Source: an uncultured virus (IMG/VR IMGVR_UViG_2724679565_000006) (taxonomy: Duplodnaviria > Heunggongvirae > Uroviricota > Caudoviricetes). From it: a stretch of DNA of 20,000 nucleotides. Position 1 is the stretch's first letter, and each line of letters begins with the position of its first letter. The DNA is taken from the IMG/VR virus record IMGVR_UViG_2724679565_000006; one strand, 5' to 3'. This document shows, one piece after another, positions 1,372 to 13,591 of the stretch. The translations under genes and the position numbers were made by a program. The notes beneath the pieces were generated by a model, which saw only the letters and a program-made list of their open reading frames with translations, was not told where the DNA came from and did no database searches.

Positions 1372-1397
1372 AAGGATACAATTAAAATTGTATCCTT
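1372..1397 (-). terminator. Intrinsic terminator-like hairpin after the tape measure gene
   Basis: AAGGATACAATT-AA-AATTGTATCCTT inverted repeat followed by TTCTTTTT on the minus strand. Confidence 0.65.
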
Positions 1398-11000: not shown

Positions 11001-13591
11001 ATACTTAGATGCTTGGCTGCGTTTGGTTGCCCAATTTTTATATTTTTTACCATACCTAAGCCGTTATACTTAGCCATTATATATGTTTCCATAATAACTT
11101 GGTATATAAAACTCTAAGGACTTCCCCGTCAATTTAAGCATTTTTAAATATACATTACTGCATACTCAGGCACACATTTTACCTGCTAAACTTTTAGCTA
11201 TATCTGCTTTTTGCAAGTCATTGAACTCTTGCCATTTTGGTTTTAGTTCTTCTATAATTTGTGAAAATTCTTTAAAATGATATTGATCTTTTCTTATAGC
11301 AACTCCTACTTTGTCTAATGACTTTTCAACATTGGATATAGTTACACCATCATCGACATTGATATTTTGTTTAATATCTTGAAATCTTGCGAAAATTGTT
11401 TTAAAGCTCTCTCCTATAGATTCCGCAGATTTTCTTGTTGTTGCCGAAACTGTAGCCACATAAGAAGCTAATGTTTCAAAATTTACTCCTGCCATTTGTG
11501 CTGAAGATGATGTTCTCATCATAGCAGTAGCAACTTCTTGGAATGAAGTAGCAGAAGCATTATCCAATGTTGAAATAGTGTCAATAACGTGCATTACCAC
11601 TTCTTCATAACTTTTACCATCTTTCTGTGCTTGTTCAGTCATGTTACTAAAACCATTTGTTATAGCAATTAGTTGCTCAGACACGGCTCTATTATCCTGT
11701 CCAGAAATAGCTCCACCTATAGTTGAAGCTTTTAATAATCCTTTTGTTTCTTCTACACTTCTACCAGCTCTAAGAAACTCTTCCGCACCCATTAATTATT
11801 TAAATTAATCAATAGACTATATCATACTTATTAGGTTAAGTCCTCGCACTTCCACCCATAGAATTTCGCTATGGATGTACTAACAGTGTTAATTCACTCT
11901 ACTTCCTTATTCACATAAACAACCCTAATTACATTTATGTTATGGTTTCGATAGTCGTTTAACGATTATATATTTAAAAATAAATATAATTTCGCACAGG
12001 ATTAGATTTCTCTTTCCCTGTTAGCCCATTCATTAACAAATTATTTCCCATTTGACCTTAACGTTGAATAGACACCCTAGATTTCTAGGTTCACGAGGTT
12101 TTACATGGGCAGTGTGCTTTGTCCACCCATCATTTCTAATGTAGTAGTATGTAATTGACCAGCCAATTTACTATATTCTCCTGTTAAATCAGCAACTTTA
12201 TCTTTTTGCATTCCTGTTATCATTGCTATATTAGTTTGAGCCTTATCCAAATTAGATATAAACCCAATACCATCTTTTACTTTATGGATTGCCTCCATCC
12301 AAGCAGTAGTAGCACCTATCCAAATGGGAAACTTTGTCATTGCCTCACCAATAGAAGCTAATATACCCCCATTCCCCTTTTTACCACCACTATTTACAGA
12401 GTTCTCTAATTTATCATATTCATTTTTTATAACCTTCAATTGTCTAGAATATTCTTCAGCATCTTTTGAATTTGCTAATTTAGCCATTTCTTCTCTTAGT
12501 TTTTTCAAATCAGCTTCTTTAATTAATTTCCCATAAGAATCTGTTAATTTTTTTATTTTATTTTCATATCCTTGAATTGCCACTGGAGCATCTTTCATTA
12601 TCTTTTCTTTTTTCTTCATTTCGGTGTTATTTTCTTTAATTGTTTTATTTTCAAAATTCATTTTGCTAACTAAAATATCAAGTTCTTTTTGAATACTTTT
12701 ACTCATAGACTCACTAGATGATTTTGTTTTATCAATTAAAGTCTGTGCTTGTTCAAGATTCTTAACAAACAATTGACTTTGGCTTCCATCACCTAATTTT
12801 ATATTTTTTTCATTTAATTTATCTATGGTTTTCTGATATTGTTCTAATGTTTTTATACTTTTTTGTACATTTTCAGTAGTATTAACACCCGTATTTTCTA
12901 AAGATAAGCCTTTATTTATAACATTTTCTTTTCTTTTTATATCTTCTTTTATCTTATACGCCTGTTCAACTAATTTATTATCATTATCTACATAACTAAT
13001 TTTTGCACTTTTAATTCTACCATTTCCGCTTTCACTAACCTTTAATTTAGCTATAGAACCAGTTAATTCTTCTATCTTTTTTCTTTCTTTTTCCAATGAT
13101 TTAATTATTTTATCCTGATCTTGTAATCTTGTATCAGTCACAGCTTTTAATTTATCAATATACTTTCCATCATTACCTATATTTTTAAATGATTTATCTA
13201 TCTCGTAATTCTTTGTTATAACATTTCCAGCTTTATCTTCATATTGAGCTAAAGCACCTATTATCTTTCCATAATCATCTTTTATAGAATTAACATTTAC
13301 ATTAGACCCTATGTTTTTTAAATTATTTTTTATTTTATCTATTTGTTGTTCAAATTGTTTATTTACATCATCGAAAGTCTTTATAAATGTTTGACTAGAC
13401 TGGTTACTAGTTTTAATAATTTCTTGCTGTAGTTTATTTATTTGTTGCTGCATTTTATCTAAAGACATACCATCTGAAAAATCTAGTTTTATTTTACTAT
13501 TTTCTCCTACTTTACCTAAAAGAGTTTCAACTCTAGTAGTTAAAGAACCTAAATCTTCTAAAGTAAACGAAGTATGTATCCCTAAACCCAT
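1396..13591 (-). CDS. Phage tail tape measure protein, spliced from 5 exons (12125-13591, 11181-11789, 7792-10809, 4240-5709, 1396-2073), about 2413 aa
   Basis: RBS AAGGAGG before ATG 13591. TP901-type TMP core motifs cross the junctions (TTLEMMG|GAEEFLRAG; IAKSLAG|THQRENFLVLM). All four junctions are phase 0 with a 5'-exon terminal U and an intron terminal G; exons total 7242 nt. Confidence 0.88.
2074..2205 (-). ncRNA. Putative TnpB omegaRNA (reRNA) scaffold; predicted guide is the flank GTAGACGGTGTTACTAGATT (2073-2054)
   Basis: Lies between the tnpB stop and the right end. Established TnpB biology: scaffold from the right end, guide from the 3' flank. 5' boundary uncertain. Confidence 0.7.
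2206..3399 (-). CDS. tnpB: RNA-guided endonuclease TnpB (IS200/IS605 family)
   Basis: N-terminal KGFKYRIYPNKTQ; RuvC-I GIDLG, RuvC-II MEDL, Zn finger CSDC...CEKC, RuvC-III DRDYNAS; all three catalytic acidic residues present. Confidence 0.95.
   Translation of the reverse strand: MTSTNIEKNTIAKGFKYRIYPNKTQINQIELSFNAKRYVWNYFLNINKHRLKHHKSVLNFAKMSRLLTLLKKKNIWLKQCEKSVLQNTLKNQYETFLKFFKKECGFPKFKSYKSNYQSIKINYTNNNIEVLEKEIKYTSTGKYKKQNCKIKLPKLKQVKIAYSRQYQGRIVSSTLSRDTDGKYYISLCCVDVPQENKEKTGLVVGIDLGIKEFATTSDNKVISNPKYYRRYEDKLIKAQRKLSKRKKGSNNRNKQRLKVNKYHKKIYNCRIDFLQKLTTDFINNYDIICMEDLNTSGILQNHKLAKSIADASFFEFNRELEYKTKWYGKIYQQIDRFYPSSQLCSDCGNQSQQTKDLGVRAYICEKCGLVIDRDYNASINILNEGLRIINNKKVVSM
3445..3473 (-). promoter_or_regulatory. 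sigmaA-like promoter for tnpB
   Basis: TTGACA-17nt-TATATT with an extended TG, upstream of RBS GAGGTG. Confidence 0.6.
3506..3533 (+). promoter_or_regulatory. sigmaA-like promoter for the HTH gene
   Basis: TTGACT-16nt-TACAAT with an extended TG, upstream of RBS AAGGAG. Confidence 0.55.
3556..3756 (+). CDS. Cro/C1-type HTH protein (HTH_26-like) inside the IStron, divergent from tnpB
   Basis: MISYKPLFRLLLERDMSKTQLREAVGFSTATLAKMSKNEYISMETLENIC; RBS AAGGAG. Confidence 0.9.
   Translation: MISYKPLFRLLLERDMSKTQLREAVGFSTATLAKMSKNEYISMETLENICVYLNCNIENVIEFIPK
3760..4239 (-). ncRNA. Group I ribozyme moiety of intron 4
   Basis: P AAUUGCUGGGAA (~4118-4129), Q AAUCAGCAGG (~3988-3997), R UUCAACGACUA (~3956-3966), S AAGAUAUAGUC (~3878-3888); IGS GUUAG can pair with exon UUGAU giving the U.G pair. 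Confidence 0.92.
4240..5709 (-). CDS. Tape measure exon 4 (coiled coil plus cell-wall-binding-like repeats)
   Basis: ORF 4237-5703 plus TCA GAA upstream; the TGA stop is the first three nt of the IStron; VYGTG.DL..A...L..LGY..DT...DI.VG repeats. Confidence 0.85.
5710..5891 (-). ncRNA. Putative TnpB omegaRNA scaffold and right end with periodic TTATA(A)G-type repeats
   Basis: About 180 nt between the tnpB stop and the element end, with local hairpins and repeats AATTATAAG/TTTATAAG/AATTATAG reminiscent of IS607 subterminal repeats. Confidence 0.6.
5892..7073 (-). CDS. tnpB: RNA-guided endonuclease TnpB
   Basis: KAIKVRLYPTKKQ; GVDLG, VVEDL, CSCC...CPNKKC, DRDKNAS; catalytic D-E-D intact. True start may be GTG 7064 (RBS GAGGTG). 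Confidence 0.95.
   Translation of the reverse strand: MILVIKAIKVRLYPTKKQEELMFKSAGIARFSYNWGLAYLNNYYKENKKSLSIGKLRKIFTELRKSNQYEWLKEVSSEIPQQALKDLGEAFKKFFKKESNYPKFKKKGKCEISFYHLGNKLTVEDNYIRLEKIGYVKMKDEGRLPVGKYKKDKIKVLNPRVKHNGHYWYLSVGVECKNNDVNLLTTESIGVDLGIKDLAIVSNIDKPFKNINKSKEVKRLNKKLKRLQRKVSRKYDMLKNSKTFEKGQKLKKTNNIIKLERQIRLVHKRIADIRLNYIHQTTNSIVKTKPYRVVVEDLNVNGLLKNKHLSKAIQEQCFNKFIAILKYKCKWDGIEFVKADRFFPSSKMCSCCGTIKKDLRLKDRTYICPNKKCDLVLDRDKNASINLANYKLA
7090..7141. promoter_or_regulatory. Back-to-back sigmaA promoters sharing one palindromic -35, with a 14-bp palindromic operator candidate
   Basis: TTGCAA at 7113-7118 has TATAAT 17 nt away on both strands (7095-7090 minus; 7136-7141 plus); AAGTCATATGACTT at 7101-7114. 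Confidence 0.7.
7159..7317 (+). CDS. Ribbon-helix-helix protein (RHH_3-like), 52 aa, divergent from tnpB
   Basis: Below the ORF-track cutoff; RBS GAGGTG; MGNQQLKTRTPIGSAINTELYNKLKNYSKKTGIPISKLLDKAISLFLESVEK. Confidence 0.85.
   Translation: MGNQQLKTRTPIGSAINTELYNKLKNYSKKTGIPISKLLDKAISLFLESVEK
7301..7332 (+). terminator. Intrinsic terminator of the RHH gene
   Basis: AATCCGTT-7nt-AACGGATT followed by a T tract. Confidence 0.65.
7389..7791 (-). ncRNA. Group I ribozyme moiety of intron 3
   Basis: P AAUUGCAGGUAA (~7723-7734), Q AUGCAGCCAAG (~7595-7605), R GUUCAACGACUAU (~7549-7561), S AAGAAAUAGUC (~7465-7475), P3 CAGAUUU/AAGGUCUG. Confidence 0.9.
7792..10809 (-). CDS. Tape measure exon 3 with hydrophobic segments, NlpC/P60 peptidase (~8620-8970) and SLT lytic transglycosylase (~8200-8560)
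   Basis: GKPYKWGG...FDCSGLVQYVY...HHVGIY...YIHA; [29 protein letters not shown]...AAYNAG. Confidence 0.92.
10810..11180 (-). ncRNA. ORF-less group I intron 2, 371 nt
   Basis: P1 CAGGU|/GCCUG; P10 UGUGU pairs with exon ACGCA; P AAUUGACGGGGAA; R UUCAACGAUUAU pairs with S AAGGUAUAAUC; terminal G10810; joins SLAG|THQRENF. Confidence 0.92.
11181..11789 (-). CDS. Tape measure exon 2 (TP901-family TMP core)
   Basis: AEEFLRAGRSVEET...DNASATSFQEVATAM...TTRKSAESIGESFKTIFARF. Confidence 0.92.
11790..12124 (-). ncRNA. ORF-less group I intron 1, 335 nt
   Basis: P1 AUGGGU|/GCCCAU; P3 CCUCGU/GCGAGG; P4 CAGG/CCUG; R AAACGACUAU, S AUGAUAUAGUC; P9.0 AU/AU; terminal G11790; joins EMMG|GAEEF. Confidence 0.92.
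12125..13591 (-). CDS. Tape measure exon 1
   Basis: Long helical N-terminus followed by AMTKFPIWIGATTAWMEAI...LDKAQTNIAMITG, the start of the TMP core. Confidence 0.9.

Follow-up and report, generated by a model that had tools for sequence, protein, structure and literature searches.

The question raised by the minus strand between positions 13591 and 1396 of a 20,000-nucleotide stretch of an uncultured Caudoviricetes virus (IMG/VR record IMGVR_UViG_2724679565_000006; the whole stretch is termed the window below) was whether a series of separate open reading frames (ORFs) belongs to one gene, and what lies between them. Large pieces were listed at 13591..12101, 11792..11166, 10851..7786, 5703..4237 and 1986..1396, and two more minus-strand ORFs, 7073..5892 and 3399..2206, were found within the two largest gaps. 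The five large pieces were found to make up one tape measure protein (TMP) gene, which is very probably interrupted by four group I ribozyme elements in sense orientation, two of them IStrons, in which a group I core is combined with a tnpB gene. An earlier note on this DNA had described a single TMP gene into which four group I introns are inserted; that description stood and was incomplete, two of the four being IStrons. The exons and the interruptions were as follows.

12125..13591, minus strand: TMP exon 1 (489 codons), an ORF matching phrog_4211 profile positions 212-647; its end was contiguous with exon 2 in 9/9 distant homologs
11790..12124, minus strand: intron 1, an ORF-less group I intron of 335 nt; partial RF00028 match, P1 with U.G, terminal G
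11181..11789, minus strand: TMP exon 2 (203 codons); PF10145 PhageMin_Tail (E 2.1e-20), phrog_4211 profile positions 659-840
10810..11180, minus strand: intron 2, an ORF-less group I intron of 371 nt; full-length RF00028 match, P1 CAGGU/GCCUG with U.G, terminal G
7803..10809, minus strand: TMP exon 3, with NlpC/P60 and SLT lysin domains (Pfam) and phrog_4211 profile positions 841-1077; end set by intron-less alleles
5706..7802, minus strand: element 3, classed as an IS607-type IStron, 2097 nt; delimited by intron-less alleles and the conserved ends of five relatives, group I core 7442-7771
4240..5705, minus strand: TMP exon 4; phrog_4211 profile positions 2101-2458, contiguous with exon 3 in 8/8 close relatives
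2074..4239, minus strand: element 4, classed as an IS605-type (group A) IStron, 2166 nt; lies after TTGAT, ends TCAG, group I core 3854-4188
1396..2073, minus strand: TMP exon 5 (225 codons and the stop), an ORF contiguous with exon 4 in the related loci L009, L015, L110 and L111

The tape measure protein gene and its junctions

The product was identified as a TMP by the PF10145 core, the collinear hits of exons 1 to 4 to the PHROG TMP family phrog_4211, its great length and its position just upstream of a distal tail protein (Dit) gene. The PhageMin_Tail match, which represents the TMP core, was found to begin at profile position 21 in exon 2, so that positions 1-20 of the profile would be expected in exon 1. 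The NlpC/P60 and SLT lysin domains of exon 3 are common in TMPs. The corrected exons total 7227 nt, i.e. 2408 codons followed by the stop; the length of about 2413 aa given in the earlier note contained a surplus of 5 aa at junction 3.

The five exon translations were run separately by tblastn against 33 related loci, and the junction regions were then inspected. At junction 1 (12125|11789), all nine distant loci with both high-scoring segment pairs (L017-L021, L023, L025-L027) were found to be collinear in a single frame with no net insertion or deletion, as in L017 (..TTLNVLQG|SEEFLRAG..). At junction 2 (11181|10809), exons 2 and 3 were adjacent and in frame in 14 of the 15 distant loci with both segment pairs (for example ..IAG|TRQRENFL..), the exception being L033 with a gap of 1.37 kb. 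Junction 4 (4240|2073) was contiguous in L009 (..GGISFD|IDGVTRLGG..), in L015 and in the plasmid loci L110 and L111. These three junctions had been predicted exactly in the earlier note, and its junction 3 (7792/5709) was wrong: the true boundaries were found at 7803|7802 and 5706|5705. Site 3 was empty in 8/8 close viral loci (L009-L016) and in 3/3 plasmid loci, which read ..YSDIGT|EMLNVTK.. across it, the empty DNA being GGAACAG|AAATG against GGAACAG|TAAT....ACGTCAG|AAATG in the window. The intron of element 3 sits in phase 1, and the phase 0 previously given for the joins had to be corrected at this site. A junction at 7792/5709 was rejected, as it leaves 15 extra nt (VINSS, 5 aa) that were absent from all eight close relatives; in the phase-0 relatives L034 and L039, a junction of this type would moreover retain a TAA in frame.

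At all four corrected junctions, removal of the element was found to restore a continuous host gene, with exact contiguity in the intron-less homologs. That the fragmentation arose by an error of assembly or sequencing, or that the ORFs are arranged in this way by chance, has hardly any probability, as the junctions were exact to the nucleotide against the intron-less alleles and introns 1, 2 and 4 recurred at 95-100% identity in several independent records. Unspliced read-through was found to reach an in-frame stop after 7, 4, 5 and 0 codons at junctions 1-4, respectively (the stop at junction 3 was taken from the ORF end at 7786), in agreement with the earlier count of at most 7 codons past each 5′ splice site. 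The predicted read-through products have 496, 696, 1699 and 2183 aa; the first three sizes had been given correctly and the fourth, 2188 aa, nearly so.

Searches of short stretches with laxer filters were made with RF00028, the Rfam group I intron model, which has a gathering cut-off of 50 bits. Each of the four gaps gave a sense-strand match shortly past the exon end, at 19-173 nt within the 5′ boundary of the element. Intron 1 was matched at 11952-12021 in the P4-P6 part (22.6 bits, local E 3.5e-3), intron 2 at 10895-11190 over the full model (32.5 bits, local E 3.8e-6), element 3 at 7442-7771 (44.6 bits, local E 4.8e-10) and element 4 at 3854-4188 (63.5 bits, local E 1.2e-15). The P, Q, R and S core elements claimed before form part of the conserved core (P3-P9) covered by RF00028, which all four elements matched on the sense strand at 22.6-63.5 bits, three of them below the gathering cut-off and intron 1 in part only. 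A scan of the nearest related virus record (G001) with the same model gave one weak match only.

A P1 helix with a U.G pair was found at every 5′ boundary in local minimum-free-energy folds, and a terminal G was found in 4/4 elements; both traits had been noticed previously. In introns 1 and 2, as in element 4, the U.G pair involved exon position -1; in element 3 the U was the first intron base. The P1 of intron 1 was formed by AUGGGU|GG with CUGCCCAU and that of intron 2 by CAGGU|A with UGCCUG, and both are most likely plain introns with textbook P1 (U.G) and P10 pairings. For covariation, four orthologs of intron 1 (window, L002, L009, L015) were aligned with a structure that included the P3/P7 pseudoknot. 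The fold contained 99% paired cells and 13 compensatory pairs, a result reached by 0/500 shuffles, with slid controls giving 0-1; the core helices P3, P4-P6 and P7 were invariant among the four orthologs. On these features all four interruptions are classed as group I elements in sense orientation, for which we infer self-splicing. The introns of IStrons have been assigned to subgroup IA2 (PMC4227781).

A repeat module internal to exons 4 and 5 (4240-5705 and 1396-2073) was found to be common to both at 33-45% identity (..YGTG.DL.NAK.YL...GY.FVDT..), and it recurs in a gene further downstream in G001 (L001 7613-7900).

The two IStrons

Within elements 3 and 4 the following features were found.

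7159..7317, plus strand: antisense ribbon-helix-helix (RHH) gene in element 3; PF12651 RHH_3, E 5.7e-19
5892..7073, minus strand: tnpB of element 3 (393 aa); Pfam OrfB_IS605, Cas12f TNB and HTH
5762..5835, minus strand: RAGATH-18 motif; RF03064, 68.6 bits against a cut-off of 44.9
5711..5745, minus strand: 3′ arm of the inverted repeat of element 3; partner 7364-7388, 21 nt 86% and 15 nt 93% complementary, about 1.6 kb apart
3556..3756, plus strand: antisense Cro/C1-type helix-turn-helix (HTH) gene in element 4; PF13443 HTH_26, E 2.3e-17
2206..3399, minus strand: tnpB of element 4 (397 aa); Pfam OrfB_IS605, Cas12f TNB and HTH as in element 3, IS200_TnpB, guided_TnpB and ISDra2 structures
2156..2188, minus strand: 3′ arm of the inverted repeat of element 4; partner 3752-3784, 33 nt, 91% complementary, 1563 nt apart

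Element 4 is classed, as far as its sequence tells, as an IS605-type (group A) IStron. It follows TTGAT, the flank motif of the ISDra2 TnpB family, and its ends were ..ACTTTGAT| at the left flank and ..GGTTCAG| at the right. The P1 helix paired UUGAU|UG with CAGUUAG (whole-stem z -4.3), the U.G being flanked by pairs on both sides. The TnpB scored 408.9 bits with IS200_TnpB of NCBIfam (cut-off 425, not reached) and 319 bits with guided_TnpB (cut-off 100, passed), and its closest natural solved structures were those of ISDra2 TnpB (8h1j/8bf8, E 1.3e-73). The core (3757-4229) was 79-84% identical to group I introns of Clostridioides, Listeria and the C. botulinum phages c-st and D-1873, and one relative of the core bears a group I intron annotation. 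The inverted repeat was found to enclose the HTH gene and tnpB, between which divergent promoter-like sites were present at 3473-3445 (-) and 3506-3533 (+). The HTH_26 protein (66 aa) showed 100% amino acid identity in a 91%-identical IStron copy of L009, which likewise follows TTGAT. Element 4 was absent exactly at its site in L009, L015 and L111.

A TTGAT target together with a TCAG 3′ end is the signature of the group A (IS200/IS605) IStrons, for which a U.G flanked by pairs on both sides has also been described (PMC4227781). Compared with CdISt1 of C. difficile and FnISt1 and FnISt2 of Fusobacterium, group A IStrons of the same survey, element 4 was alike in the target site and the 3′ end, the 5′ group I core, the doubly flanked U.G in P1, the IS200/IS605-type TnpB, the lack of TnpA and the inverted repeat around the ORFs. 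It differed in the extra antisense Cro/C1-type HTH gene, in an inverted repeat of 33 nt, long beside the 6-10 bp known from group A IStrons, and in its location in a phage tail gene of a C. botulinum-like plasmid, a species for which the 2014 survey gave only group B.

Two further observations were made in element 4. A terminator-like hairpin of the sense strand (3773-3789, -) shares sequence with the 5′ arm of the long inverted repeat, and the choice between the two pairings may bear on whether transcription of the TMP gene reads through. Over its final 90 nt (2080-2168, -), the place expected for an IS605-type guide scaffold, the element gave a weak match to Ref70, an Enterococcus small RNA; 21 Enterococcus plasmids matched parts of the window, and Ref70 may itself be a TnpB guide scaffold.

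Element 3 is assigned, by comparison with known elements, to the IS607-type IStrons that resemble CsISt1. G is the last base of its 5′ exon, followed by U as the first element base, and the element ends CAG; in the P1 helix CAG|U paired with GCUG, the U.G pair being followed by an internal loop (local fold). The closest solved structure of its TnpB was 8IAZ, the ISFba1 IS607 TnpB (E 3.8e-72), and the NCBIfam models IS607_TnpB and IS200_TnpB gave 195 and 265 bits, both below their cut-offs. The RAGATH-18 motif, known as the guide-RNA scaffold of IS607 TnpB (PMC11061315), was found 56 nt past the tnpB stop and 56 nt short of the right end. Relatives of this TnpB at 78-82% identity were found in Peptostreptococcaceae, Romboutsia, C. 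difficile, Sarcina and others. Five of these relatives (Peptostreptococcaceae, Romboutsia, C. difficile, Sarcina, Clostridiaceae) contained in common a ribozyme region of about 430 nt and the ends ..CAG|TAAC.. and ..TTTATACGTCAG|, and RAGATH-18 was present 3′ of tnpB in 5/5 relatives scanned. The boundaries were phase-compatible in 4/4 relatives with long ORFs on both flanks, the fifth, L037, having no long ORF on its left flank.

Element 3 has CAG at both target and 3′ end and does not show the GG-ending target and the CGG 3′ end of the IS607 type. In C. sporogenes, CsISt1 follows AG and has CAG as its end, and G-ending 5′ exons are described for the IS607-type (group B) IStrons, verified by reverse-transcription PCR for BcISt1 (PMC4227781). 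Compared with the group B IStrons BcISt1, CbISt1-4, CboIStron and CsISt1, element 3 was alike in the G-ending 5′ exon, the U as first intron base, the U.G with internal loop, the long AU-rich inverted repeat, the ISFba1-like TnpB and the RAGATH-18 scaffold, and with CsISt1 it had in common the site after AG, the CAG end and the presence of ORF B only. Differences were found in the end, CAG instead of CGG, and in the flank, RCAG (ACAG here) as against the G-rich flanks TGGG, AGGAG and GAGGG of the tested IS607 TnpBs. The antisense RHH gene, coding for 52 aa, lies in a stretch absent from the five closest relatives. It was rejected as a new feature, as an IStron-encoded RHH ORF is already reported for some IStrons (10.1101/2023.11.20.567912). 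The face-to-face promoter-like sites between this gene and tnpB share TTGCAA at 7113-7118.

The 3′ arm of the inverted repeat of element 3 was found to fall within the 3′ flank of the guide scaffold, so that the splicing fold and the guide fold should exclude each other. A conflict of this kind has been shown experimentally for a C. botulinum IStron (10.1101/2023.11.20.567912).

In each IStron a small antisense DNA-binding gene was found between the ribozyme core and tnpB, with high-scoring promoter-like sites placed back to back between the two genes, and the small antisense proteins may hold tnpB down. Both TnpBs contained D, E and D in the columns aligned with the RuvC catalytic Asp/Glu/Asp of their solved relatives (ISFba1 TnpB for element 3, ISDra2 TnpB for element 4), the chain numbering being mapped by hand count. 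The triad of the ISFba1 TnpB is D194/E290/D371 (PMC11061315). With regard to putative guides, the 20 nt past element 3 corresponded to the empty alleles of L002 and L009 with one mismatch (position 14) and the same ACAG flank; element 3 could target the empty sites of relatives if its TnpB acts as published.

Occupied and empty sites in relatives

The occupancy of the TMP gene in the window and in its closer relatives was as follows.

Window: sites 1, 2, 3 and 4 occupied
Six viral loci (L010-L014, L016) and plasmid L112: sites 1, 2 and 4; element 4 99.8-100% identical
L111: sites 1 and 2 only
L009 and L110: site 1; site 2 with a variant of 1293 nt; a copy of the element 4 IStron in exon 3
L015: site 1; a further intron, containing an HNH_3 ORF, in exon 2 (aa 129/130); site 2 with a variant of 858 nt

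The site 2 variant of L009 and L110 was found to hold a 320-aa ORF with a homing-endonuclease-associated repeat, and their copy of the element 4 IStron lies after another TTGAT within exon 3 (aa 958/959), where the window has ATAGAT and no TTGAT. Six sites are used across the TMP family, and the window has the largest number occupied. When genome contigs were searched with exon 2, the relatives obtained all lay at 31-42% identity.

Exons 2 and 3 showed dN/dS (ratio of nonsynonymous to synonymous substitution rates) values of 0.04-0.25, with dS up to 0.94, between lineages all of which have inserts at sites 1 and 2. Selection at the protein level was therefore kept in the exons downstream of introns 1 and 2 while the gene was interrupted, which provides the best indirect evidence from the sequences that these two introns splice. 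For element 4, given the near identity of its carriers, the corresponding evidence of splicing is weak.

Under the reading of one TMP gene with four ribozyme elements, the gene would be transcribed as a single precursor of about 12.2 kb, from which each ribozyme would excise itself and ligate the exons, giving the frame of 7227 nt and the TMP of 2408 aa. In the IStrons the long inverted repeat would loop out about 1.6 kb of cargo and return the distant 3′ splice site to the 5′ ribozyme core; the cargo would comprise tnpB, under a promoter of its own, and the antisense gene for the small DNA-binding protein. The guide scaffold of element 3 would lie within the looped-out stretch, and that of element 4 presumably 3′ of the repeat. 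If these IStrons behave like the published ones, each TnpB would take up a guide RNA that has the first ~20 nt of the 3′ exon as its guide, and would cut element-less alleles adjoining the flank motif, which would favour the element, by copying or retention, where relatives are co-resident.

Several results weigh against this reading. The Infernal scan with group I models that had been suggested as a check gave no group I intron over the whole window, either with the gathering threshold or, over 12 kb, with E<=1, and the short-stretch searches, though positive in 4/4 gaps, exceeded the 50-bit cut-off in element 4 alone, the partial match of intron 1 (22.6 bits) being the weakest. No TnpA ORF was found in either IStron (its position is taken by the antisense HTH gene in element 4; remnants were not searched for), so that both would be non-autonomous; most published group A IStrons likewise contain no intact ORF A. 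The promoter-like sites were no more frequent than in shuffles of the AT-rich DNA. For the guide RNA of element 4 no family was matched in Rfam apart from the weak Ref70 hit (26 bits, E 0.52), and the 20 nt past element 4 differed from the empty alleles at 5 (L009) and 4 (L015) of 20 positions, TTGAT being present, which makes cleavage of empty site 4 alleles doubtful. Among the compared alleles element 3 was seen only in the window and has no comparative support for splicing, and its 5′ splice site is non-canonical, with G at -1 and a U.G that uses the first intron base.

These last points bear on the improbable case that the gene is dead or partly dead, in which some element, most plausibly element 3, no longer splices. 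The TMP would then be truncated (1699 aa or shorter) or made as two polypeptides, and the whole would be a defective or decaying prophage-plasmid. Besides the atypical 5′ splice site and the score of element 3 under the Rfam cut-off (44.6 vs 50), an ATG 2 nt past the junction opens exon 4 (ORF 4237..5703) and makes its separate translation conceivable, decay occurs in the family as seen in the frameshifted exon 1 of plasmid L111, and C. difficile IStron copies splice with widely varying efficiency (10.1101/2023.11.20.567912). Against this, all exons were open and collinear with intact homologs, and element 3 had retained its ribozyme core motifs, long inverted repeat and terminal G. Its family restores the frames in 4/4 informative relatives, and the exon 4 protein was 100% identical to the G001 copy over 488 aligned codons, no downstream decay being visible.

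The earlier note had proposed that splicing efficiency gates tail assembly and that partly spliced transcripts give functional truncated TMPs. The in-frame stops do make the removal of all four elements necessary for a full-length TMP, TnpB and guide-RNA binding lower IStron splicing (10.1101/2023.11.20.567912), and the divergent small DNA-binding gene of each IStron could tune the balance of splicing and guide formation. Nothing in the sequence demands regulation, however, and early in-frame stops are a common, generic trait of phage group I introns (PMC2504315). The same gene is retained in relatives that have two or three elements or have them elsewhere in it, and the variable occupancy indicates that the elements behave as dispensable parasites and not as built-in regulators. 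Such gating is accordingly regarded as very improbable.

A wider view of the interrupted TMP gene in this Clostridium phage-plasmid family, tentative and possible rather than probable, is that it serves as an arena of competing and spreading self-splicing elements. Two unrelated TnpB drives, of IS605 and IS607 type, would home into the empty alleles of co-resident relatives, and the HTH and RHH repressors would restrain tnpB so that the guide fold spares the splicing of an essential late gene. Tail production would in that case be coupled to the state of the IStrons.

A few minor observations were made in the relatives. In the 858-nt site 2 variant of L015, an ORF of 120 aa (12387-12749) codes for a lipoprotein-like signal peptide and was matched by no Pfam family; such intron cargo is unusual. 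In the distant homologs L032 (10342-10344) and L033 (4739-4749), the exon-2-like sequence was found to change frame near aa 125-129, close to the extra intron site used in L015. TMP exon 1 of L111 (10864-12376) was split between two frames (aa 1-211 and 193-489), by a frameshift or a sequencing error. Just downstream of Dit, L111 (251-1634) and L112 (1-134) contained another transposase with an antisense RHH module, which shares 65-77% identity with portions of element 3, some of the ribozyme region among them; more IStrons may be present in the tail module of these plasmids.

Host, annotation and precedents

The nearest named records were Clostridium botulinum plasmids of 197-215 kb, with 89-93% identity over 58-71% of the window, and the nearest virus record, G001, was of 199,910 bp with terminal repeats. 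The region is taken as the TMP gene of a phage-like element of about 200 kb, most likely from Clostridium botulinum or a close relative. A match to the Fusobacteriales-1 RNA (RF02920) was found at 19927-20000 (-), 62.9 bits against a cut-off of 52.1, clipped by the window end. A Fusobacterium host, considered from this match and from the literature on Fusobacterium IStrons, was rejected, as the nearest records are the C. botulinum plasmids. Because the nearest named relatives are Clostridium plasmids, the Fusobacteriales-1 RNA would appear not to be confined to Fusobacteriales hosts, or to travel with phages.

In three related RefSeq plasmid records the TMP pieces were found as separate CDSs with unrelated names, as had been expected of annotation pipelines: "hypothetical protein", "phage tail tape measure protein", "transglycosylase SLT domain-containing protein" or "NlpC/P60 family protein", and once "fatty acid synthase subunit beta domain-containing protein", with TnpB and the HTH gene lying between them. 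These annotations were taken from the PLSDB feature table, which is without RNA and pseudogene features, so that an intron annotation in the originals is possible. In related public records a TMP of 2408 aa is thus disguised as a set of five to seven unrelated "genes", and recognition of the elements corrects both the gene model and the predicted tail length.

No paper on this TMP gene was found within the limited literature collection searched. A 2026 paper in Nucleic Acids Research (NAR) reportedly treats IStron TnpB and guide-RNA biology. In the orf142 gene of Staphylococcus phage Twort, a different gene, three plain group I introns occur in one phage gene. Each kind of element is already known, and four in one gene is unusual. 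IStrons have been published from C. botulinum phages (PMC4227781), as has the biology of the IStron TnpB and guide RNA (10.1101/2023.11.20.567912). The earlier statement that introns in a TMP are unusual was overstated, as group I introns are described at three TMP positions in Bacillus cereus-group prophages, and one in the TMP of Lactobacillus phage JCL1032 (PMC2504315). The B. cereus-group introns TMP-IVS1, 2 and 3a/b resemble the present ones in being group I introns, ORF-less or bearing a homing endonuclease gene, at several TMP positions, in their early in-frame stops and in their patchy spread among related prophages; the host clade and the sites are different here, with four elements per allele, six sites and two IStrons.

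The locus draws its interest from four elements of three sorts stacked in one essential gene, with both IStron types co-resident. If the host assignment is right, the statement of the 2014 survey by Tourasse that no species harbours both IStron groups (PMC4227781) fails for this lineage. With both IStron types and two plain introns in one essential late gene, and with close relatives as natural element-less alleles, the locus offers a compact natural setting for the conflict between splicing and guide-RNA formation, and it suits the question of how far such elements spread between phage-plasmids.

The gene downstream of the TMP gene was as follows.

2..1345, minus strand: distal tail protein (Dit) gene; phrog_202 and phrog_33 Dit, PF20195, PF05709

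The position directly upstream of the TMP gene, usually occupied by tail chaperone genes, was found to contain a GNAT acetyltransferase gene (13832-14389, -; phrog_1758), which reaches no NCBIfam family cut-off.

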